A stretch of DNA of 64,000 nucleotides from an uncultured bacterium (GTDB taxonomy: Bacteria; Patescibacteriota; Minisyncoccia; Phycocordibacterales; UBA9973), in assembly GCA_903894955.1 (NCBI GenBank), contig CAITSA010000001.1:3769-67768 (forward strand), given 5' to 3'. A program made the translations under genes and the position numbers. Numbering within the stretch: the first letter of the stretch is position 1; each line of letters starts with the position of its first letter. Shown here piece after piece: positions 12,598-62,165 of this stretch. The notes below the pieces were generated by a model. That model did no database searches and had not been told where the DNA came from. It saw nothing but the letters and a program-made list of their open reading frames with translations.

Positions 12598-12661
12598 AAT
12601 GTACCACTTTTACAATATAGCATATAAGAAAATAAATGTCAACCCCTATCGTTTACGGACA

Positions 12662-13729
12662 ATGAAATTAAGTAAAAAAATCCTTATGAAAAAAGACGAA
12701 AAAAAAGAAATAGCTGATGATTCTTTTTTAGATCAAACCCTCCGCCCTACTCGATGGGATGAATATATTGGTCAAAAACACATAAAAGACAACGTTAAAA
12801 TCTTATTGCGAGCTGCCCAAGAACGCGGGCACATTCCAGAGCATCTTCTTTTTTATGGACCTCCTGGATTAGGGAAAACTACCTTAGCGCATTTAATTGC
12901 CAAAGAAACTGGCAAGCAAATGAAAATTACTTCTGGTCCAGCCATAGAAAAAGTTGGTGACTTGGCTTCAATTCTAACAAATTTGGCTTCTGGGGACATC
13001 CTTTTTATAGATGAAATTCACAGACTAAATAAAATGGTTGAGGAAATACTCTACCCTGCTATGGAGTCTGGAGTTTTAGATATTATTATCGGTAAAGGCC
13101 CTTCCGCGCGTACTATTCAGCTTGATCTCCCCCCTTTTACTTTAATTGCTGCCACGACTCGAGTGGCCATGGTTTCTTCTCCGCTTCGTTCTCGTTTTTC
13201 GGGAGGAGTTTTTCGTTTGGAATTTTACTCTAATGAGGAAATTGCAAAAATTGTTGAAAGGTCCAGTAAACTTTTAAAAATAAATTTAGCTCCGGAAGCC
13301 TTAAAAGAAATTGCGGAAAGGAGTAGGTTTACTCCTCGTACTGCAAATTACTTTTTGAAACGTTGTCGCGATTTCGCTCAAGTGTACCCCGAAGGAAAGC
13401 AAGCTTCCTACGGGGCAGGTGAAAAAGCTATTAGTAAAGAAATGGCGAGAAAAGCTCTTGCTATGCTGGCTATTGATGATATTGGTTTGAATTCTTCAGA
13501 TAGAAAATTTCTGGAAATATTAATTGAAAAATTCAAAGGTGGACCAGTGGGATTAAAAACTATGTCAGCCGCTATGTCAGAAGAAGAAGCGACTGTAGAA
13601 GAAGTGATAGAACCATACTTAATTCAATTAGGTTTACTAGAACGCACCGCCCGCGGAAGAGTTGCGACCAATAAAGCATATGAGCATTTAGGGTTTGACT
13701 CGAAAGAAAAACAAGAAAAACTTTTATAA
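12662..13729 (+). CDS. ruvB: Holliday junction branch-migration ATPase RuvB
   Basis: Start moved to ATG 12662 (MKLSKK). Walker A GPPGLGKTT, Walker B LFIDEIHR, RTANYFLKRCRDFA. Confidence 0.9.
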   Translation: MKLSKKILMKKDEKKEIADDSFLDQTLRPTRWDEYIGQKHIKDNVKILLRAAQERGHIPEHLLFYGPPGLGKTTLAHLIAKETGKQMKITSGPAIEKVGDLASILTNLASGDILFIDEIHRLNKMVEEILYPAMESGVLDIIIGKGPSARTIQLDLPPFTLIAATTRVAMVSSPLRSRFSGGVFRLEFYSNEEIAKIVERSSKLLKINLAPEALKEIAERSRFTPRTANYFLKRCRDFAQVYPEGKQASYGAGEKAISKEMARKALAMLAIDDIGLNSSDRKFLEILIEKFKGGPVGLKTMSAAMSEEEATVEEVIEPYLIQLGLLERTARGRVATNKAYEHLGFDSKEKQEKLL

Positions 13730-14663: not shown

Positions 14664-14758
14664 TACTTTTAAAAACCGCACATAATTTTCTGCTGAAAAT
14701 TTGCTATGCTCGGCTCGCCAGCCTGCGCAATGCTTTTTAAAAGTATTACTTCATTTTT
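14651..14758 (+). repeat. arm-core-arm element, copy A (conserved hairpin CTCGGCTCGCCAGCCT at 14709-14724)
   Basis: 25-bp perfect inverted arms (14651-14675 / 14734-14758). The left arm contains the last codons and stop of ruvC. The 58-nt core shares its architecture with 25589, 49870 and 59225. Confidence 0.7.
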
Positions 14759-14980: not shown

Positions 14981-15010
14981 TAACCCCGTCGCTCGCGAGC
15001 GACGGGGTTA
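14981..15010. terminator. bidirectional terminator, 30-nt perfect palindrome
   Basis: TAACCCCGTCGCTCG|CGAGCGACGGGGTTA flanked by an A-run and a T-run. Shared by the small ORF (+) and tyrS (-). Confidence 0.8.
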
Positions 15011-31838: not shown

Positions 31839-32285
31839 TTACTTATTATTCTCTTTTTGTTTACTTAAATCTAATATATCCAAACTCCAAGCTAAATCTC
31901 GTAACTTACTCCCGCTTAACTGGTCGCCTTCTTTTATCATTTGAACTTTATTTGTATTATTATTTTTTTCCCCGCCCGCATCGCCTTGCGAAGCATGGCG
32001 GGCAGGTATACGTTTTTTCCAGATGTAAAGTTTATTTTGGGTAAAATATTTAAAACTTGATTCTAGCATATTCACAAAAGGTTTATTATTTGGTTTATAA
32101 AAAGTAAGGGTTAGAGAAAATCCAGCCATGATTAAAATCGGGATTGCTCCCATCACGAGACCTAATAATTTATACAATACAAAACATAGGCCTGCTCCTC
32201 CTGCCAAGTAAATAAATTCCCTAAAAGTAAAAGGACCAAATATTTTATCTTCAATATCTAAAAATTGTGGAACTTTGAATTGCAT
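31839..32285 (-). CDS. PrgI/VirB3-like small membrane protein
   Basis: MQFKVPQFLDIEDKIFGPFTFREFIYLAGGAG followed by two TM helices; directly upstream of the VirB4 ORFs. Confidence 0.6.
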   Translation of the reverse strand: MQFKVPQFLDIEDKIFGPFTFREFIYLAGGAGLCFVLYKLLGLVMGAIPILIMAGFSLTLTFYKPNNKPFVNMLESSFKYFTQNKLYIWKKRIPARHASQGDAGGEKNNNTNKVQMIKEGDQLSGSKLRDLAWSLDILDLSKQKENNK

Positions 32286-32566
32286 CCCGTTAGAGATAGG
32301 AAGCGCCTAATCTATTTTTAAGATAACGCTTGCCCATTCCTGATTTTAAAAATAACTCTCTCGACCTCGCTTTACTTTTTAATAAGCACCCTTCGTAGTA
32401 TATCAAAATAAATGGGCCTCGTCCTTTCGTATATGTAGATAAACCTTTATTGTGCTGACTTAGGCGCTTTCGTAGGTCTTGCGTATATCCCGTATAAATT
32501 TTACCGTCCTTCTTACTTTTTAAGATATATGTGTAATAAAACATAAGTGATCTCTAACGGGATGCA
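32281..32566 (-). mobile_element. GIY-YIG gene cassette bounded by 17-bp perfect inverted repeats
   Basis: TGCATCCCGTTAGAGAT (32281-32297) and ATCTCTAACGGGATGCA (32550-32566) are exact reverse complements. Between them lies only the GIY-YIG ORF. Confidence 0.65.
32290..32544 (-). CDS. GIY-YIG nuclease-domain protein (short, UPF0213-like)
   Basis: YYTYILKSKKDGKIYTGYTQDLRKRLSQHNKG; 84 aa. Confidence 0.8.
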   Translation of the reverse strand: MFYYTYILKSKKDGKIYTGYTQDLRKRLSQHNKGLSTYTKGRGPFILIYYEGCLLKSKARSRELFLKSGMGKRYLKNRLGASYL

Positions 32567-39924: not shown

Positions 39925-40728
39925 CTAGCTTTTAGAGAGGGCAATCCAGCCAGAAAGAGTTAAATCTTCTGCTCTTTTGTTTTTTAAGGTCTCTGAAGTA
40001 GAAATTCCTCTATTTTTTAGATTTGAGGAGAGCTTTTTTCTTTTATGAGCAAAGCCAGCTTTGACTATTCCCCAAAATCTTTCCTCATCAATGTTGTTTT
40101 CCTTAAAAGTCTTTCGAGAAATATTTTTTATGGCAATAATAGCTGAATCAACCTTGGGGCTGGGTGAAAAATATCTTTTATCAACTTTTGCAATAATTTT
40201 TGGCTCCCCGTAAGCTTTGACTGAAATAGACAGAATACTTTCTTTATTATCACGAGCCACTATTCTTTTTGCTACTTCGTGTTGCACCATTAGAATCATC
40301 CTTTCTGGTTGTGCTTCTATTGTTAAAAATTTTTTTAAAATTGCACCAGTAATATTATAAGGAATATTGGCGATGATTTTATAGTGAACCCCTCTAGCCT
40401 TCCTTGTCATGGGAATATTTTCTCCCCCTGCTAAGGGGGAGATTAAGAGGGGGTCGAATTTTAAAATATCATCATTTATTAAAATTAATTTTTTTTCTAA
40501 AATTTCTTTTTCAAATTTTGTTTTTAAAAATTCAAAAAGTTCACGGTCTTTTTCTACTGCGATGACGAGATTGGATTGCTCTAAAAGTTTTTCTGTGAGT
40601 GCTCCTTTTCCTGGTCCAATTTCTAAAATTACATCATCTTTTTTTATTTCCCCAACTTCCGCAATTTTCTTTAAAGCAATTTCTGACTTTAAAAAATTTT
40701 GCCCCAGTGATTTTTTAGCTCTGTGCAT
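39925..40728 (-). CDS. rsmA: 16S rRNA (adenine1518/1519-N6)-dimethyltransferase
   Basis: Start moved to ATG 40728 (MHRAKKSLGQNFL). EIGPGKGALT SAM motif; ANIPYNITG. Confidence 0.85.
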   Translation of the reverse strand: MHRAKKSLGQNFLKSEIALKKIAEVGEIKKDDVILEIGPGKGALTEKLLEQSNLVIAVEKDRELFEFLKTKFEKEILEKKLILINDDILKFDPLLISPLAGGENIPMTRKARGVHYKIIANIPYNITGAILKKFLTIEAQPERMILMVQHEVAKRIVARDNKESILSISVKAYGEPKIIAKVDKRYFSPSPKVDSAIIAIKNISRKTFKENNIDEERFWGIVKAGFAHKRKKLSSNLKNRGISTSETLKNKRAEDLTLSGWIALSKS

Positions 40729-40736
40729 AAATATAA

Positions 40737-42335
40737 TTATTGGAATGCAATAGTGCCTATAATTAAAATAAGATAGATCATATAAACCACAAACGCTTTC
40801 CATTCTTTATAATTTTCTTCATTAATGAAATACCAAGAAAGGATGGAAGCTATGATAGATGGAACAAAAAGGAATGGAATGTGAAAATACCATGGAATTA
40901 AAAGAAAGAAAAAACAAATAATTCCAGCAATTAATTTTTTAGATTTTTTTAATCCCAATAAAGTAGGAATGGTTTTTATACGAGCGACACGATCTCCTTC
41001 AAAATCTTTAATATCACGAATATTAGAAACTGCAATATGGAAAATAACAATAGCTACAGCCAGACCAAACGGGAAAGCAGTGATAGCTTTATTAGGACTT
41101 ACTAAGAAAAATCCTCCTAAAACAGCTGATAAACAAGCAAGTCCAACTAGGCTGGAATTTAAGATGACGAATCTTTTTAGTCTTAAGGGCGGATTGGAAT
41201 AAATAAAATAAATAGAAAGTCCTAGGCAGGTAAAAAATAATATATAAAGGCTAGATGCATAAGCTGATAATAATGCAAAGATTAGAAATATTTTTGAAGC
41301 TATCTCTAGGTCATTTTTTGATAAATCTTTTGTAATTAATGGACGATTTTTATTTGATACAGTATCAATTACTTCATCTTGTATATCATTTTGACAAATA
41401 CTAAACATTCCAGCACAAATAAGTGTTATGGTCGCTAATATATAACTCTGAATATCAATCCAGTTTGTTGACCAGGTGCCATGAGCCAAAACCACGCCAA
41501 ATATGGATAAAAGAAAAAAATAAAATAGTCTTTCCAATCGGCTGTTTTTTAGTAAAGCTATTAATTTTTTTCTAGCACCAAGAAAGAAAAAAGAAAGGGT
41601 AGCTAATATAGCTATGATGGTGTTAAAACCAATCATTGTTTTATTAAAAGCGAATTCAATTAGTCCTTGGTTGGTTGCTGTGAAATTTGGATCAAGATTA
41701 TTTTGAATTATGTGTGATGAAATGATTGATTGTACGACTGAAAAAGCTGGTCCATTTTGGTTTGGTAAGAATAAAGCTATTAATGAAGGAATTGAGCCAA
41801 GGAAAAGTACAAAAACATAAAAAGCAAAAGTTGCTCCCAGAGCCCGAAGAAAATTTTTTGTAACTTTGTACACGTAAACACAACAAAAAATACCTCCAAT
41901 GATTCCTTCAATTTTCATTCCAAGAGTTACCCCAGAGTTTATCTTTCCGCTAAAAAAATATGTCCCAAACTGAAGCAGTAAGTCTTTTCCAGTTACGAAA
42001 AGATAATTTATTGGGTGTCCACCCACTCCGCCAAAAATTAAATCAATAATTGGAGGAATCCAAATTACGAAAAATCCTAAAAGACAAATTACTGACACTT
42101 CTTTTAGACTTGTTTTGGCAAAAAACATTAAAATAACCATTAAGCCAACAATAGTAGTAAGAAAAAATATATTAAAATGAATGATACTGGATAGATTAAT
42201 CAGAATAAATTCTCCTGGTTTAAAATTTGAAAACTGCTCTAATAGAGCTCTGATCAATACAATCCCAACAAAAGAAGCAATCCAAGAATTAAAAGTTATC
42301 GGGACAGAATTTGCATACAAGCGCAATTTTTCCAT
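40737..42335 (-). CDS. UbiA-family prenyltransferase with ~300-aa N-terminal polytopic extension
   Basis: NDIQDEVIDTVSNKNRPL and DIKDFEGD Asp-rich motifs in the C-terminal half. 532 aa, hydrophobic throughout. Confidence 0.65.
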   Translation of the reverse strand: MEKLRLYANSVPITFNSWIASFVGIVLIRALLEQFSNFKPGEFILINLSSIIHFNIFFLTTIVGLMVILMFFAKTSLKEVSVICLLGFFVIWIPPIIDLIFGGVGGHPINYLFVTGKDLLLQFGTYFFSGKINSGVTLGMKIEGIIGGIFCCVYVYKVTKNFLRALGATFAFYVFVLFLGSIPSLIALFLPNQNGPAFSVVQSIISSHIIQNNLDPNFTATNQGLIEFAFNKTMIGFNTIIAILATLSFFFLGARKKLIALLKNSRLERLFYFFLLSIFGVVLAHGTWSTNWIDIQSYILATITLICAGMFSICQNDIQDEVIDTVSNKNRPLITKDLSKNDLEIASKIFLIFALLSAYASSLYILFFTCLGLSIYFIYSNPPLRLKRFVILNSSLVGLACLSAVLGGFFLVSPNKAITAFPFGLAVAIVIFHIAVSNIRDIKDFEGDRVARIKTIPTLLGLKKSKKLIAGIICFFFLLIPWYFHIPFLFVPSIIASILSWYFINEENYKEWKAFVVYMIYLILIIGTIAFQ

Positions 42336-43490: not shown

Positions 43491-45560
43491 TTATAAGTAA
43501 ATTGTTTTTATTCCACTGGCCTCACCTTCTTTTTTTAAAATATCAGCTGGAATATCTGAAATAAATTCTGATGGTGTATTTATCTGGCGTGATCCAAAAA
43601 TAGTCCGGAAATTTGCAAATGACAAAAATAATTTTTCTTTAGCGCGAGTGAGTGCCACATAAAAAAGTCTGCGTTCTTCCTCGTCGTCTTCATTTGCTTT
43701 ATTTTCATTTTGTCTTTCGTGTGGGAAAAGTCCATCTTCTAATCCTGTAATAAAAACATATTTAAATTCAAGTCCTTTTGAAGCATGGACGGTCATAAGT
43801 TTTATAGCGTTTACTTTTTCTTTTTTTTCTTGATTAATCATTAATGAATCTTGATCTGATGCTAGTGACGCATCTTCTAAAAGTTTTTCTACTCCTGTTC
43901 CACTTGTTAGATTGTCATATTTGAGTGCAAGGGTGGCGAGCTCTTTGATGTTTTCTAATCTCTCCATATCTTCTTCGGTTCCAGCAGAAAGTTCTTGTTC
44001 AATCCCGGACTTTTTAACTACAAATTTTATTATCTCGCTTGTCTTTAAACCTTGTTTTTGTTCATCTTGTCTGGATATTTTTTCTTTTATCTCTTCGAGT
44101 ATTTTATAAAAATTATTAATTTTTATTTGCATTTTTATCGGCAAGGTTTCTCTTTGTCCAGAAAAAATTTTCATTAAAGTTACTTTTCCGATGCCTCGTG
44201 CTGGGAAATTTATTATTCTTTTTATATCAGATAAACTATCGGGGTTTAGAGCTGCTCGTAAATAGGCTAAAGTATCTTTAATTTCTTTTCTTTCAAAAAA
44301 TTTAACACCTAAAACTTGATATGGGATATTATACCGAAGCATCGCTTCTTCCAAAACTCTGGACTGAAAATTTGCACGATAAAGAATTGCTATTTCAAAC
44401 AAATGAGAGGATGTTACTTTTGTGGGGTCGCTGTCTGTGCCTACTGGCACAGCGCTGCCTCTCGGCCCGTCGGCCTGTGAGACACCCCTCAAAAGCAAAT
44501 CCTCTCCTTTGTCTAGTATTTCTAGAATTTTTGTTGCGACGAATTCTCCTTCGTCTGTTTCGTCGAGTGCTTCATATAAGCCTATCTTCTCCCCTTCCAC
44601 ATTGTTTGTAAATAAATTTTTATCTGGTCTATATTTATTTTTCTTGATTACCACATTGGCTGCTTCTAAAATATTTTTTGTAGATCTGTAATTTTGTTCC
44701 AGTAAAATTATTTTTGCATTTGGATAATCTTTTTCAAAATTTAAAATATTTTTCAAATTTGCTCCGCGCCAAGAATAGATATTTTGATCTGCATCACCCA
44801 CCACGCAAATATTTCTATTAGTATTTGTTAGTAATTTAGACATCAAATACTGCACTTCATTTGTGTCTTGATATTCATCGATGTGTATATATTCCCATCT
44901 TTCTTGATAAATTTTTCTTATCTCTTTGTTTTCTTTTAATAATTTTGTAGTCTTTAACAACAGATCATCAAAATCTAATGCATTCTCTTTTGTCTTTTGT
45001 TTTTCATATAAATTCCAAACTTGAGCCACAATTTTCCCCAAAGAATTTCCTCCTCCCTCTTCCCTTTCTACATAATCCGCTAAATATACAAACTTTCCTT
45101 TTTCTCGGGAAATTATATTTTTGATTTTTTTTGGATCATATTGTTTCGGGTCTAAGCTAAGCTCTTTTAAGATATTCTTTATCAGAGTGGTGGTATCATT
45201 TTCGTCTAAAATAGTAAAATATTTTGTTAAACCTAAAAGTTGTGCATTTTCTTTTATAATATAGACTCCCAAAGAGTGGAAGGTGCTGACGAAAGGAATT
45301 TTATCTTGTCCTTTGGCATTTTTTTGGATTTCTCCGATAATTCTCTCGCGCATTTCTTTAGCTGCTTTGTTGGTGAACGTGACCGCTAAAATTTTATCAG
45401 GCGAAACTCCATTTTTTATTAGATTGACAATTCGATGCGTAATAGTCTTTGTTTTTCCCGCTCCCGCTCCAGCCACAATCAAAAGTGGACCCTTCACATG
45501 AAGTGCTGCCTCTTTTTGCTCCTTATTGAGACCTTTTAAATGCTGTTCGTCTATAGCCAC
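43491..45560 (-). CDS. pcrA: UvrD/PcrA-family SF1 DNA helicase
   Basis: AGAGAGKTKTITHR, IHIDEYQDTN, VGDADQNIYSWRGA, TVHASKGLEF. Confidence 0.9.
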   Translation of the reverse strand: MAIDEQHLKGLNKEQKEAALHVKGPLLIVAGAGAGKTKTITHRIVNLIKNGVSPDKILAVTFTNKAAKEMRERIIGEIQKNAKGQDKIPFVSTFHSLGVYIIKENAQLLGLTKYFTILDENDTTTLIKNILKELSLDPKQYDPKKIKNIISREKGKFVYLADYVEREEGGGNSLGKIVAQVWNLYEKQKTKENALDFDDLLLKTTKLLKENKEIRKIYQERWEYIHIDEYQDTNEVQYLMSKLLTNTNRNICVVGDADQNIYSWRGANLKNILNFEKDYPNAKIILLEQNYRSTKNILEAANVVIKKNKYRPDKNLFTNNVEGEKIGLYEALDETDEGEFVATKILEILDKGEDLLLRGVSQADGPRGSAVPVGTDSDPTKVTSSHLFEIAILYRANFQSRVLEEAMLRYNIPYQVLGVKFFERKEIKDTLAYLRAALNPDSLSDIKRIINFPARGIGKVTLMKIFSGQRETLPIKMQIKINNFYKILEEIKEKISRQDEQKQGLKTSEIIKFVVKKSGIEQELSAGTEEDMERLENIKELATLALKYDNLTSGTGVEKLLEDASLASDQDSLMINQEKKEKVNAIKLMTVHASKGLEFKYVFITGLEDGLFPHERQNENKANEDDEEERRLFYVALTRAKEKLFLSFANFRTIFGSRQINTPSEFISDIPADILKKEGEASGIKTIYL

Positions 45561-54170: not shown

Positions 54171-54238
54171 TATTTAGTAGATTTCTTGCTGATAACACCC
54201 CGATAGCAGAGCAAGCTCGCTACGGGGCAGGAGTTTCA

Positions 54239-55924: not shown

Positions 55925-56587
55925 TTAATCCGCAAAGTGACCTTTGACGTCTTCTCCAAAAAATAAGTGATGAAGCATCTTTAGAATATTTTCAAAAAGT
56001 GTAGTGCTATAAGAAGAAAGGTTAAAAATAACAGCTAGAGTAAACAAGACAAGAGCAAGTTTTATGCTCCAGAAACAAAGTGGGATGGCAATAAGCGAGA
56101 AGAACACTGGCATTAGAGTACGAATAGTACTACCCCGAATTTCCCTTTTTGGAATTTCAGGATTTACAATATGTTCTGAGTAAAATACATATCTTCGCAT
56201 CCAGTATAAAGTAAGGCCGATTAAGATTGTATGTATGCCAAAGATTACAACAGCTAGTTCATTTTTGTTATATTCTCCAAGAATACTAGCGGAAAAAGGG
56301 ATTAAACTTATGAGCATAAAAAACAAGGCATTAATGTTGGTGAGCATAGAGTCAACATTTTTTGCGTAAACAGAAACAAAAAAATGGTGTGCTCGCCAAT
56401 AAGTGAAAAGTAGAGCAAAGCTTAAAATATAACTCATCAATACTGGAAATAACTTTTCAATCTGGAGCCAAAGGTCTAAATTGCTTATTTGTCCCCAGAC
56501 TACAGGTACTTTTATATCAAAAACGAGAATTGTCATCACGATGGCAAAAATTCCATCGGAAAGCTGATCTAATCTTGTATGGTTCAT
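55925..56587 (-). CDS. TMEM175/DUF1211-family putative K+ channel
   Basis: Start moved to ATG 56587 (MNHTRLDQLSDGIFAIVMTILV, the family signature). 6 TM. Confidence 0.75.
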   Translation of the reverse strand: MNHTRLDQLSDGIFAIVMTILVFDIKVPVVWGQISNLDLWLQIEKLFPVLMSYILSFALLFTYWRAHHFFVSVYAKNVDSMLTNINALFFMLISLIPFSASILGEYNKNELAVVIFGIHTILIGLTLYWMRRYVFYSEHIVNPEIPKREIRGSTIRTLMPVFFSLIAIPLCFWSIKLALVLFTLAVIFNLSSYSTTLFENILKMLHHLFFGEDVKGHFAD

Positions 56588-56625
56588 GCTTAAAATATAG
56601 CATAAAATATTTAAAATATAAACTT

Positions 56626-57441
56626 TTAAATCTCTAGCCAAATTGGACAGTGGTCCGAGCCGTAATAATCAGACAACATGCCCGTGGCTTTTATCCCGAC
56701 GCTTTTAGGTCGGGACCCCGACAACGAAGTTCGTCGGGGCTTTAGATCTTTGAAAAAAATTTCATCGGCAAAAAAATAATCAAGACGCCAGCCGACATTT
56801 CTATCTCTAGCGCGAGTTTTGATATCCCAATATGTATAAGCGCCAATTTTTTCTGGATAAAACTTTCTAAATACATCAATGAATTTATTTTTTATTACTT
56901 TATCAATCCAAGCACGTTCTATGGGCAAGAAACCAGTATTTTCAACGTTAGCTTTCGGGCGGGCAAGGTCGATTTCTTCATGGGCTGTATTTATATCTCC
57001 ACAAAAAATTACATTTTCGCCATTCTTTCGCAACTTCAGGATAAATTTTAGAAAAGCTTCGTAAAATTCTAATTTATATTTTAATCTATGTGGTCCTTGG
57101 CCACCATTTGGAAAATATCCAGTAATGATGGTGCAATTTTTTAATTTTACACCAAGCAATCTTCCCTCGTTGTCTAATTTTTTTACACCCATACCATAAA
57201 AAACTTCTCTCGGTTTTTCTTTAGTGTAAATTGCTACCCCACTGTATCCTTTCTTAATTTTTGGATGTGAAAAGTAAGAATAATATCCAGAAATATTTCG
57301 TACTTCGGGAGGCAATTGTTCTGGAGTGGCTTTTGTTTCTTGTAGACATAAAATATCTGGTCTGTTTTTAAATAGGGGAATAAAAAATCCTTGTTTTGCT
57401 GTTGCCCGAAGCCCGTTGGTGTTCCAAGAAATTATTTTCAT
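56626..57441 (-). CDS. xthA: exodeoxyribonuclease III
   Basis: [31 protein letters not shown]. Confidence 0.9.
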   Translation of the reverse strand: [271 protein letters not shown]

Positions 57442-59224: not shown

Positions 59225-59356
59225 AAGATTTAAAACTCTTTCTTGGCATACTTTTTATAAAGCAATCTATCTGGCGAAGCTTCGCCAGCGAACTGCTCGG
59301 CTCGTCAGCCTGCGCAAGGCTTTCAAAAAAGTACGCCTGCAACAAGTTTTTAAATC
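59225..59356 (+). repeat. arm-core-arm element, copy D (conserved hairpin CTCGGCTCGTCAGCCT at 59296-59311)
   Basis: Long imperfect arms (AGATTTAAAACT..GGCATACTTTTTATAAAGC / GCTTTCAAAAAAGTACGCC..AAGTTTTTAAATCT). The core resembles copy A. Confidence 0.65.
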
Positions 59357-60014: not shown

Positions 60015-62165
60015 ATGGGCGAATATATGCAAAAAAAAGAATATAGTGTAGAGATTGGCGGAAAAACATTAACGGCTATTTTTACTGATTTAGCTGAACA
60101 AGCTCATGGTTCAGTAATATTAAAATATGGAGAAACAATTGTTCTGGCCACTGTTTGTATGTCTCATGACAAACAAAAAGGTTTAGGATATTTTAATTTG
60201 ACAGTTGATTATGTAGAAAAATTTTATGCAGCTGGAAAAATTTTAGGTTCACGTTTTGTTAGACGAGAAGGGAGACCTTCAGAAGAAGCTATCCTTGCCA
60301 GTCGAGTTATCGACAGGACTCTTCGTCCACTTTTTGATCAATCGATTCGTCACGCGGTGCAAGTCATTGTGACGGTTCTTTCGGTAGACGACAATGATCC
60401 GACGATTTTAGCAGTTAATGCAGCCTCTCTCGCTTTAGCTGTTTCGAATATTCCATGGAATGGTCCTATTGGTTGTGTGCGTATTGGTAAATACGATAAC
60501 GATAATCTAATCATCAATCCAGCCCAGTCTTTGCGTATAGATGAGGATACTCAATATAAGTTTGACCTAACTGTTTGCGGGAAAGATGGAAATATAAATA
60601 TGATTGAAGCCTCTGCCCGTCAGAGCAAGGAAGAAGAATTAGAAGAAGCCTTAGAAAAGGCAAGTATTGAAATAACTAAACTAGAAAATTTTCAAAAGAA
60701 AATAGTGGGAGAAATAGGTAAAGAAAAAAGAATTATTGAGAAAGAAATAATTTCTCCAGAATCAGTGGCTTTATTTAATGAAAATATTTTACCCAAAATG
60801 GAGGAAGCACTTTTTGGCGAAGCGGGCCTGCCTGCGCAGTCAGGCAAAAAGAAAATAGATGATTTGCATAATATGTGGAATAAAATGGTGCAGGATAAAT
60901 TCAAAGACCGAGACGATTTCTTCTTAGAAGATAATTTGTTTGATGATGCAGAAAATGAAATCTTGCACAAAAAAGCGATAGCAGAAAACAAAAGAGCTGA
61001 TGGAAGAAAGATGGACGAACTTCGTGATTTATATGCTCAAGCCGGAGGATTTTCGAGTAAATTACATGGTTCGGGAATTTTTTATCGTGGAGGAACACAT
61101 GTGCTTTCAGTCCTCACCTTAGGTGGTCCTGAAGATAGAAATTTAGTTGATGGCTTACAGTTGAAAGTAGAGAAAAGATTTATGCATCATTATAATTTTC
61201 CTCCTTATTCTGGAGGAGAAGTAGGAAGATCAGGTTTTACTAATCGCCGAGAAATTGGACATGGAGCCCTCGCCGAAAAAGCTCTAGCGATGGTTCTGCC
61301 TTCAGTTTCAGAATTTCCATATACCATGAGAATTGTTTCTGAATCAATGGCTTCTAATGGTTCTACTTCACAAGCAAGTATTTGCGCTTCTATTCTCGCC
61401 TTGATGGATGGCGGAGTGCCAATTAAAGCACCTGTCGCTGGCATAGCGATGGGCTTGATGATTGAAGATGATGCAAAATACAAAATTTTGACTGACATTC
61501 AAGGACCCGAAGATCATCATGGTGATATGGATTTCAAAATTGCTGGAACGAGAATTGGTGTTACCGCTATCCAGCTTGATGTAAAAGTAGAAGGAGTATC
61601 GATAAAAATATTAGGGGAAGCAATGAGACAAGGAAAAATTGCACGGGTAGTTATTATTGATAGACTAGAAAAAGAAATTCCAAAATCCCGAGACAATATT
61701 TCTCCAAACGCACCAAAGATTTTAATTATTAAAATTAATCCTGAAAAAATTGGTTTAGTGATTGGTGGTGGAGGAAAAACAATCAAAGAAATTAAAGAAA
61801 AATCTGGCGCGGAAATAACCATTGAAGATGACGGAACTGTTTATTTGACCGGAAAAGATGGATCAGCTGAAAAAGCAAAAGAATTAGTTGAAGAGATGAC
61901 TCATGAATTTAAAGTGGGGGAAATGTTGAAAGGTGAGGTTATGAAAATTCTTGATTTTGGAGCTTTTGTGGCCTTGAATCCTTTCACGGATGGAATGGTG
62001 CATATTTCTGAAATAGCACCATTTCGCGTCGAGAGAGTATCAGATATAATAAAGGAAGGGATGATTGTTCCAGTGAAAGTTATCTCTATTGATAAAGAAA
62101 GAGGGAAAATTGGTCTATCTATTAAAGAAGCGGATAAAGATTTTTTTAATGGCGGAAAAAAATAA
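60015..62165 (+). CDS. pnp: polyribonucleotide nucleotidyltransferase (PNPase)
   Basis: Two RNase PH domains; KH (VIGGGGKTIKEI); S1 (GEVMKILDFGAFVAL). Follows rpsO as usual. Confidence 0.9.
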   Translation: MGEYMQKKEYSVEIGGKTLTAIFTDLAEQAHGSVILKYGETIVLATVCMSHDKQKGLGYFNLTVDYVEKFYAAGKILGSRFVRREGRPSEEAILASRVIDRTLRPLFDQSIRHAVQVIVTVLSVDDNDPTILAVNAASLALAVSNIPWNGPIGCVRIGKYDNDNLIINPAQSLRIDEDTQYKFDLTVCGKDGNINMIEASARQSKEEELEEALEKASIEITKLENFQKKIVGEIGKEKRIIEKEIISPESVALFNENILPKMEEALFGEAGLPAQSGKKKIDDLHNMWNKMVQDKFKDRDDFFLEDNLFDDAENEILHKKAIAENKRADGRKMDELRDLYAQAGGFSSKLHGSGIFYRGGTHVLSVLTLGGPEDRNLVDGLQLKVEKRFMHHYNFPPYSGGEVGRSGFTNRREIGHGALAEKALAMVLPSVSEFPYTMRIVSESMASNGSTSQASICASILALMDGGVPIKAPVAGIAMGLMIEDDAKYKILTDIQGPEDHHGDMDFKIAGTRIGVTAIQLDVKVEGVSIKILGEAMRQGKIARVVIIDRLEKEIPKSRDNISPNAPKILIIKINPEKIGLVIGGGGKTIKEIKEKSGAEITIEDDGTVYLTGKDGSAEKAKELVEEMTHEFKVGEMLKGEVMKILDFGAFVALNPFTDGMVHISEIAPFRVERVSDIIKEGMIVPVKVISIDKERGKIGLSIKEADKDFFNGGKK

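Follow-up and report, generated by a model that had tools for sequence, protein, structure and literature searches.

How a GC-rich, doubly palindromic stretch came to lie in frame within a gene as conserved as that for exonuclease III, and whether it is kept there for the protein or for the nucleic acid, is the question raised by one locus in a 64,000-nucleotide stretch of bacterial DNA (hereafter designated the window). The host belongs to the Patescibacteria, judged from the best matches, and the hairpin segment has a GC content of 63% against a window mean of about 33%. The gene concerned (56626–57441, minus strand; 271 residues) was identified as that for exodeoxyribonuclease III (xth/APE1 family) from the list of open reading frames (ORFs), from Pfam, and from an alignment with Mth212. 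Residues 4–264 matched Pfam PF03372 (Exo_endo_phos) with E = 5.7e-28, and the presence of both this fold and the catalytic C-terminal SDH motif places the protein in the family. The GSDHCP sequence containing that motif is unbroken downstream of the insert and is conserved in the alignment with Mth212 (3G91), the closest solved structure, which aligned over the full length with E = 2.3e-86. Among 8000 homologues retrieved, the top matches were exodeoxyribonucleases III of Paceibacterota/Nomurabacteria.

On the plus strand, the palindromic stretch reads T-CCCGAC-GCTTTTAG-GTCGGG-A at 56694–56715, followed without any spacer by CCCCGAC-AACGAAGTTC-GTCGGGG at 56716–56739. Both hairpins have the same 7-bp stem, and the translation frame of xth stays open through them; the 15-letter peptide given for this segment in the original prediction agrees with the true ORF translation. 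The two GC-rich hairpins are real features; the pattern CCCGAC-N4-14-GTCGGG matched twice in the 64-kb window, both times here, and not once in 100 dinucleotide-preserving shuffles. The mRNA strand folded into two adjacent hairpins with −29.5 kcal/mol (z = −3.4), a stability reached by none of 200 shuffles. Beyond the hairpins the mRNA reads AUAAAAGCC, and no terminator-like site (GC-rich hairpin plus T-run) was found between 56400 and 57000 on either strand. A search of the window and of ten element-carrying loci against Rfam 15 at gathering scores returned tRNAs only.

A covariance model (R1) trained on 76 copies, together with the pattern statistics and the fold, delimits the repeat element as 46 nt at 56694–56739 (minus strand), consisting of two adjacent inverted hairpin units of 22 and 24 nt in the window copy, with the 7-bp family stem YCCCGAC/GTCGGGR. 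Hairpin 1, which is 5′ on the coding strand (56716–56739, minus strand; CCCCGAC-G(bulge)-AAC-TTC-GTT-GTCGGGG), encodes PRRTSLSG, and hairpin 2, 3′ on the coding strand (56694–56715, minus strand; TCCCGAC-C-TAAAA-G-C(bulge)-GTCGGGA), encodes SRPKSVG and the first base of the next codon. In the family, unit 1 is composed of CCCCGAC, an unpaired G that is nearly invariant in the 76 copies, a variable inner stem-loop, and GTCGGGG, and unit 2 of TCCCGAC, one more pair, a 3–5-nt loop, an unpaired C, and GTCGGGA. Where the loop of unit 2 has six nucleotides, the n1–n5 pair adjoining the bulged C was Watson–Crick or G–U in all 54 copies (shuffle mean, 32; maximum, 41), and three Watson–Crick types were represented (31 C–G, 14 T–A, and 8 A–T, besides one T–G). 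The mirrored bulges, with G on the 5′ side in one unit and C on the 3′ side in the other, show unit 2 to be an inverted copy of unit 1. This inverted-dimer architecture accounts for the similar covariance scores of the window copy on the two strands, namely 54.4 bits (E = 1.7e-10) on the minus strand and 44.9 bits on the plus strand. With filters off, R1 gave no second credible match in the 64-kb window.

That the hairpins were inserted into exonuclease III, as originally proposed, was borne out by orthologue alignment. They are absent from 109 of 121 close orthologues, in which a short loop, ADEKIVPKIKSTG, occupies the position; the nearest relative (P0001/L001, 92% identical outside the insert) is empty, reading GCCGATGAAAAAATAGTACCAAAAATAAAATCC, and the full-length alignment of Mth212 has a gap of 17 residues just where the insert lies. 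As judged from these alignments, a conserved exonuclease III has acquired the hairpins by insertion, in a length-variable loop that leads from the RLDYFF strand to the GSDHCP motif and that accepts at least five other types of insert among the orthologues. When the window DNA was aligned with empty (L001–L005) and filled (L081–L085) alleles, an altered 5′ flank, ATTTTTTTCAAAGATCTAAAG (IFFKDLK; 56740–56760, minus strand), was found in place of AAAATAGTACCAAAA (KIVPK) of the empty alleles, and a flank of the form FF(D/K)(E/D)(T/L)K is common to all xth carriers. The protein has gained 17 residues (51 nt) net and not 15, because the unit has 46 nt and the neighboring flank differs by 5 nt; the length of exactly 15 codons originally assigned thus holds for 56695–56739 but not for the insertion, and removal of those codons would leave the loop two residues longer than in the empty alleles. 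Since 46 is not a multiple of 3, the history of the locus requires a second event that altered the flank by 5 nt. The product is predicted to be a 17-residue loop rich in P, R, S, and G, modeled at low confidence: AlphaFold2 gave pLDDT values below 50 for residues 234–247, flanked by a helix (227–230) and a strand (252–255). The phmmer alignment of the protein with 5CFE ends at residue 234, ahead of the stretch whose spacing the original prediction had likened to that of B. subtilis ExoA.

Six copies in xth were gathered by protein similarity and are therefore unbiased as to base pairing. Among them, pairing holds in 107 of 108 cells, and in five pairs both partners have changed; the covariation score was reached by none of 500 shuffles, and sliding the pairing partners lowered the pairing to 30–52%. 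The inner pairs 9–17, 10–16, and 11–15 of hairpin 1 covary, and the closing T–A pair of hairpin 2 is replaced by C–G in carrier L083. In the same carrier, a 1-nt deletion in the loop puts part of hairpin 2 in another frame (SRPKSVG becomes PRPKASG) with the stem kept, and the peptide from hairpin 1 varies across the carriers (RRTSLSG, RRALLSG, RRPEGSG, and RRLKGSG). Since the stems are kept by compensatory change while the peptide drifts, it is the nucleic acid that is under constraint. Both hairpins are kept in each of the five orthologues that have a similar peptide, and no orthologue was found that carries the same peptide without hairpin potential, the case named at the outset as decisive against the insertion of hairpins. 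Compensatory upkeep of old copies is unexpected for purely selfish DNA and hints at a function at the level of the host or linked to a nuclease.

The shared flank and loop sequences indicate that the six carriers go back to one insertion by descent. In a neighbor-joining tree, drawn without bootstrap, they are nevertheless scattered, each beside empty alleles, and one insertion with such a scatter requires either many precise losses or recombination between species. Everywhere upstream of the insert, the empty sister L001 is closest to the window (80–96%), whereas 3′ of it, over a short tract, the window is nearer to carrier L081 (91%) than to L001 (82%). This pattern suggests that the insert block may have moved between xth alleles by recombination. 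The short 3′ tract is the sole support for recombination between species.

The element is not specific to xth but is, as far as contig sequences tell, dispersed in the Patescibacteria, which are candidate-phyla-radiation bacteria. Scanning metagenome contigs with the exact pattern yielded at least 120 stretches, in contigs of 30–59% GC among the matches listed. The same pattern had no match in 2.9 million viral contigs, by which a phage origin was ruled out. In 515 kb of related genomes, a loose regular expression detected the tandem pair in an intergenic position upstream of pnp in L010, L040, and L037 (decaying) and, in L036, in frame within a xerC/D-like recombinase gene, and R1 found four copies in 500 kb of Paceibacteria DNA from 80 related species, at two loci besides xth. 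The copy number is a few per genome, about one per 100–125 kb in relatives. These dispersed copies confirm the original prediction in that GC-rich hairpins recur in both coding and non-coding DNA. The kinship it had suggested with hairpins elsewhere in the window was not upheld by the covariance model, which ruled out a single family: R1 did not match the sites at 13387 and 54198, which belong to a separate repeat family, and gave only 11.7 bits (E = 0.48) for the terminator at 14981; the resemblance of all three sites is superficial.

Bases outside the search pattern are also conserved among the matches listed, with C at −1 in 112 of 114, A at +1 in 105, A at −3 in 88, and G at −2 in 73 of the same 114 copies. 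The full GTAG occurred in 19 of 109 flanks among these matches, nearly all of them fragments of tRNA D-arms, and the window copy has AAAG. Direct repeats in the flanks had a mean of 1.52 as compared with 1.09 ± 0.12 in shuffles and were lacking in 58 of the 114 listed copies; target-site duplications appear to be weak or absent.

About a third of the copies among the matches listed lie in long ORFs, in both orientations. The host genes, named from their translations, encode UvrA (two genomes, same site), UvrC, DnaK (two genomes), DnaE, Pol I, and GyrA, further RecG, RecJ, DinB, SMC, a Pif1-like helicase, and YchF (three genomes), and also PheT, PrfB, TrxB, and MurI, so that the element is found in at least 15 unrelated genes besides xth, plus intergenic DNA. 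In other genes its DNA is read in other frames and from the other strand, and the copy in DnaK corresponds to a clean 14-residue gap relative to E. coli DnaK. Intact ORFs of this kind imply that the element is translated in its host proteins. Among the matches listed, 28 of 33 copies embedded in ORFs, as against 17 of 56 non-coding ones, had a core length of 1 modulo 3, which makes the full C...A unit divisible by 3; the non-coding copies were spread over the three length classes (25, 17, and 14). As copies in ORFs are almost always multiples of 3 nt, selection appears to have filtered random insertions for those preserving the frame, and the same bias defines the boundaries of the element. 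The 46-nt window copy belongs to a minority length class, which fits the compensating 5-nt change in its flank.

A second setting of the element is provided by tRNA genes. Among the matches listed, 24 of 114 copies lie at most 290 nt upstream of a co-oriented tRNA gene, in two distance classes, one of 12–66 nt with no ORF between and one of 267–289 nt with an ORF of 86–90 residues encoding a GIY-YIG protein, whose ATG is located 12–21 nt downstream of the hairpins. The double hairpin sits inside a duplicated tRNA 5′ fragment of about 17–21 nt, cut at GTAG|C. Flanks of the form GTAGC ... ACTCA(G/A), found in 19 of 109 cases among the matches listed, represent the first 11 and the next about 6 bases of a tRNA, and the same tRNA follows intact. 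In six of seven cassettes selected by their hairpins, the stop codon of the GIY-YIG gene is the TAG within G7-U8-A9-G10 (positions 8–10) of the intact tRNA. A group I intron in the tRNA was ruled out by the complete downstream tRNA; group I introns in Patescibacteria tRNAs lie at position 35/36 in the anticodon loop, with neither GIY-YIG genes nor hairpins mentioned (Nakagawa et al. 2026, PMC13011429). At one locus without the complete gene (L166), the sequence ATGGCTTAG is a remnant of the start of the GIY-YIG ORF. Cassettes involve tRNA-Asn, tRNA-Val, tRNA-Met, tRNA-Lys, and tRNA-Gly.

The association with the GIY-YIG gene held in both directions. Among 194 ORFs within 200 nt of copies, GIY-YIG was the sole recurrent family among the matches listed, and no recurrent transposase-like family was seen within 200 nt of the 114 listed copies. 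Conversely, five GIY-YIG loci were selected by the protein, as homologues from long contigs chosen regardless of hairpins, and in all five a tRNA 5′ fragment containing the double hairpin lies immediately upstream (tRNA-Asn or tRNA-Val), although three of the five are the same tRNA-Asn locus and do not represent independent events. The order of tRNA fragment, hairpins, ORF, and tRNA was thus seen at seven hairpin-selected and all five protein-selected loci. In L213, unit 2 carries compensatory changes in its stem, and the GIY-YIG gene is preceded by the dimer and followed by an inverted single hairpin. In Patescibacteria, the protein family of the cassettes has 503 clusters or more. Among solved structures, those closest to it are UPF0213 proteins (1ZG2, E = 1.5e-4), and SLX1, a structure-specific nuclease, is a weak match. 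In related loci collected independently of hairpins, a regular expression for the GIY-YIG motif had no match, and a hidden Markov model found two genes of a different subfamily with no hairpin nearby. One of the two, at 32290–32544, is the only GIY-YIG gene in the window. Presumably, the hairpin dimer belongs to the GIY-YIG cassette as one of its constituents, the hairpins beside the gene would be the apparent master copies, and solitary dimers in genes are non-autonomous derivatives.

Several known systems share part of these features. In Rickettsia, whose genomes are small, AT-rich, and reduced, selfish palindromes (Rickettsia palindromic elements, RPEs) lie in frame in many unrelated essential genes, adding extra surface peptides in permissive loops; RPE-1 has about 100–150 bp. 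They were reportedly described by Ogata et al. in 2000. To our knowledge, RPEs are confined to Rickettsia, and we know of no nuclease or tRNA associated with them. The present element resembles them in its in-frame insertion into many unrelated protein genes and differs in its size of 37–46 nt and probably also in being unrelated to them in sequence. Free-standing GIY-YIG homing endonuclease genes also occur in tRNA regions, as exemplified by SegB of phage T4. The small ORF among or beside tRNA genes is common to both, and the ORF-less remnants resemble the degeneration phase of homing genes; the cassette differs, however, in duplicating about 17–21 nt of the tRNA 5′ end with the double hairpin in the left copy, and in its apparent link to solitary hairpins scattered through protein genes. 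As for miniature inverted-repeat transposable elements, the present element is a near-palindrome throughout, and direct repeats in its flanks are only slightly above those in shuffles.

The closest parallel is with REPs. Di Nocera et al. (2013, PMC3733652) describe GTAG/CGTC REPs as GC-rich imperfect palindromes of 20–40 bp, often forming inverted dimers 0–2 bp apart, which lie in intergenic DNA but can also be contained entirely within an ORF and translated, strikingly often in genes of DNA repair and replication such as uvrA, uvrB, dnaE, polA, and recB. The window element shares with REPs the short imperfect palindromic stem-loop and the two inverted units; it is an inverted dimer of bulged hairpins, or a head-to-head REP dimer in the terms of that survey (PMC3733652). 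The hosts are likewise similar, including uvrA, uvrC, dnaE, polA, gyrA, recG, recJ, dinB, and xth, and the ending of the GIY-YIG ORF on the GTAG of the tRNA recalls REPs whose GTAG ends supply TAG stop codons (PMC3733652). The differences are the stem sequence, the GTAG tag, which is only partly present here, the copy number, which is a few per genome as against tens to hundreds and short of that of a high-copy repeat, and the associated gene, which near the listed copies encodes a GIY-YIG nuclease and not RAYT. In the sections drawn on, the survey spans eight phyla, among which Patescibacteria are not named, equates RPE-4 and RPE-6 with CGTC REPs, and records that CGTC-type REPs and RPEs have been assigned no dedicated transposase (PMC3733652). 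REPINs, according to Bertels and Rainey (2011, PMC3116915), are non-autonomous inverted REP doublets whose partner RAYT is a single-copy, vertically inherited enzyme gene flanked by repeats. The hairpins on both sides of the GIY-YIG gene in L213 match this arrangement, whereas REPINs are extragenic and abundant, and the partner here is a GIY-YIG protein of 86–90 residues at tRNA 5′ ends in place of a Y1 HUH transposase. Translated intragenic palindromes like REPs or RPEs are of an already known kind; what looks new is the phylum, the low copy number, and the fixed link to a small GIY-YIG gene that has a tRNA 5′ fragment on one side and the complete tRNA on the other, and the inverted dimer of bulged hairpins with its cassette appears to be a new variant in Patescibacteria. 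Our literature search found nothing on such elements in Patescibacteria or on a link between GIY-YIG and REPs, an absence that is not proof.

Collectively, we consider it probable that the 46 nt at 56694–56739 represent a single copy of a REP-like palindromic element that is dispersed in Patescibacteria, is non-autonomous, and has a GIY-YIG partner. The constant partner of this element would be the gene for the small GIY-YIG (UPF0213/SLX1-like) nuclease, which may recognize the DNA hairpins and have them copied into (A/T)AG|C-type sites, the role that RAYT plays for REPINs, and homologous recombination has probably also contributed to the spread between xth alleles of different species. We infer mobilization by the nuclease from the fixed genomic association and from the structure-specific nature of its weak relative SLX1. 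A bolder proposal, made tentatively and with the balance leaning against it, is that these loci belong to an undescribed mobile system of Patescibacteria, in which the 86–90-residue GIY-YIG gene is an autonomous form inserting at tRNA 5′ ends and the hairpin dimer is copied in trans. The gene would duplicate about 20 nt of the tRNA and borrow its U8-A9-G10 as a stop codon, and the dimer would go to (A/T)AG|C sites throughout the genome, essential genes included; if this is true, a REPIN-like system is run by a GIY-YIG nuclease and not by a tyrosine transposase. Against the REP-like element with a GIY-YIG partner count the low copy number (one in 64 kb), unlike that of classical REPs, the second change that the 46-nt window copy requires in its flank, the scatter of the xth carriers, the weak or absent target-site duplications, the different subfamily of the only GIY-YIG gene in the window, and the compensatory upkeep of old copies. 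The history of the element is read here from sequence comparison, and no transposition or homing event is among the observations.

The element might instead be an ordinary REP/REPIN or IS200/IS605-type palindrome moved by a Y1 (HUH) tyrosine transposase that works on hairpins in single-stranded DNA. The GIY-YIG/tRNA loci would then be no more than a favored landing site, owing to the GTAG|C present in the D-arm of the tRNA. GAA/AAA triloops closed by C–G are typical of very stable single-stranded DNA hairpins, which would suit such a mechanism. So would the inverted bulged dimer with its (T)AG 5′ flank, which fits the GTAG-tagged head-to-head REP dimers, and the concentration of intragenic REPs in genes for DNA repair and replication, as here, both described in the survey (PMC3733652). 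Against this stand the sole recurrence of GIY-YIG, with no transposase-like family, near the 114 listed copies and the hairpins at all five protein-chosen GIY-YIG loci, which at about one copy per 100 kb is far too frequent for a passive landing site. Moreover, GTAG proper is seen in only the 19 of 109 flanks noted above among the matches listed, nearly all tRNA fragments, and the copy number is far under that of typical REP families; movement by a Y1 transposase is thus unlikely.

Explanations confined to xth fare less well. The hairpins could be an immobile cis-acting RNA or DNA signal selected in this gene, such as an mRNA stabilizer, a translational pause, a processing site, or an antisense terminator, and the stable fold and the compensatory pairing across xth orthologues of 75–82% protein identity, with the peptide drifting, are what such a signal would leave. 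Its occurrence in both orientations in at least 15 unrelated genes and between genes, its absence from most xth orthologues including the closest, and the lack of any terminator-like site on either strand and of any Rfam match make this quite improbable. Selection could also have acted on the protein, the loop being an adaptive extension (for example, a basic DNA-contacting loop) and the hairpins a by-product of codon choice; the peptide is indeed basic (K, R, R, R, and K) in an enzyme that binds DNA, and the loop has been retained in six lineages. The residues nevertheless change freely, even by an internal frameshift, with pairing kept in 107 of 108 cells, the loop is predicted at low confidence, and elsewhere the element is translated in different frames and from the opposite strand. 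By alignment, the insert site corresponds to about residues 289–303 of APE1, which we take to lie outside its DNA-contact loops, and the probability that the protein was the target is close to negligible.

With the hairpins regarded as a dispersed REP-like element, streamlined candidate-phyla-radiation genomes of about 1 Mb are seen to keep palindromic repeats in essential repair, replication, and chaperone genes, a tolerance hitherto described chiefly for Rickettsia and some bacteria rich in REPs. The element accounts for unusual loops rich in P, R, S, and G (PRRxxGSGSRPxxSG, PDASVGVPTETSG, and others), which inflate and disturb protein alignments, annotation, and structure prediction in these organisms, and the small GIY-YIG nuclease at tRNA genes becomes a candidate enzyme for the spread of REP-like elements. 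The xth copies show plainly how, within coding sequence, the structure of DNA or RNA can be the target of selection, or of conversion, while the peptide drifts. Among the cassettes, the loop of unit 1 in L211 has grown to about 26 nt.

The surface loop of exonuclease III that carries the double hairpin is an insertion hot spot. Among the xth orthologues, at least five other unrelated inserts were found in this same loop in different species (DNA loci L004/L037/L048; L014, together with protein P0069; L024, together with proteins P0017 and P0042; L031; and L086). GC-rich palindromes make up the majority of these inserts, that of L031 having only 35% GC; one reads CCCGCCTCG...CGAGGCGGG (-34.5 kcal/mol), and another is a 75-nt element with a stem of 13 bp. 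Moreover, the peptides TLLGGQ, TCLPARQ, KGQKQ, and SARGGSASGGK were found at other sites in xth of the orthologues. In the window, xth shares the 16 nt of its stop region (56626-56641) with a TTG-start ORF on the minus strand (55925..56641); this ORF encodes a potassium channel similar to TMEM175 (PF06736, E = 2.9e-19).

A second family of GC-rich hairpins, with the pattern CCCCGA-stem/loop-ACGGGGCAGG, is represented by two copies in the window. One (13387-13419, plus strand) lies inside the RuvB ORF (12599..13729), where it forms an in-frame insert of 10 residues (YPEGKQASYG) in comparison with T. thermophilus RuvB, and the other (54198-54231) is intergenic, with convergent ORFs on either side. 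Elements of this family encoding the peptide PEGKSTSYGAG are also present in PNPase of the related locus L040 and, in two copies, in UvrA of L161. Indeed, the single uvrA gene of L161 contains at least four palindromic inserts of three families, namely, the two PEGKSTSYGAG copies, SAKGGSASGGK, and a copy of the double hairpin, PRRLSGSGSRPQASG. In carrying multiple palindromic inserts, it resembles the uvrA genes of Opitutus terrae, for which the account of Di Nocera et al. (2013; PMC3733652) includes multiple REPs.

A third GC-rich repeat, GCTCGGCTCG(C/T)CAGCCTGCGCAA(T/G)GCTTT, occurs in two intergenic copies in the window (14695-14742 and 59275-59329). GC-rich hairpin islands within ORFs, which may be additional in-frame palindromic inserts, were found at 31959-32014, 44435-44498, 60805-60855, and 40422-40441; the last is located in the RsmA/KsgA ORF (39925..40803), encodes SPLAGGE, and is surrounded by gaps in the alignment of RsmA to 6IFS. 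The perfect 11-bp GC-rich hairpin at 14983-15008, ACCCCGTCGCT-CGCG-AGCGACGGGGT, which lies between convergent genes and is bordered by runs of A and of T, looks like an ordinary bidirectional terminator; its membership in the double-hairpin family was rejected, as it scored only 11.7 bits with the covariance model.

At locus L138 (8735-9130), a small GIY-YIG ORF is placed between a duplicated tRNA 5' fragment and the intact tRNA, and the same layout was found at L144, L148, L188, L091, L170, L207, L209, L210, L211, and L213, with ORFs of 86-90 aa. The double hairpin lies within the duplicated fragment at these loci, and the ORF stop codon is formed by tRNA U8-A9-G10 in most of them, L213 being an exception. 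ORF-less versions of the hairpin/tRNA layout have a spacer of 12-66 nt and are located 5' of tRNA-Phe, Thr, Val, Lys, Asn, Arg, and Ile. The window itself contains an 84-aa GIY-YIG ORF (32290-32544, minus strand) of a subfamily other than the cassette's, near which no double hairpin was detected by the covariance model in the window; this ORF resembles the GIY-YIG ORF near xth of locus L082.
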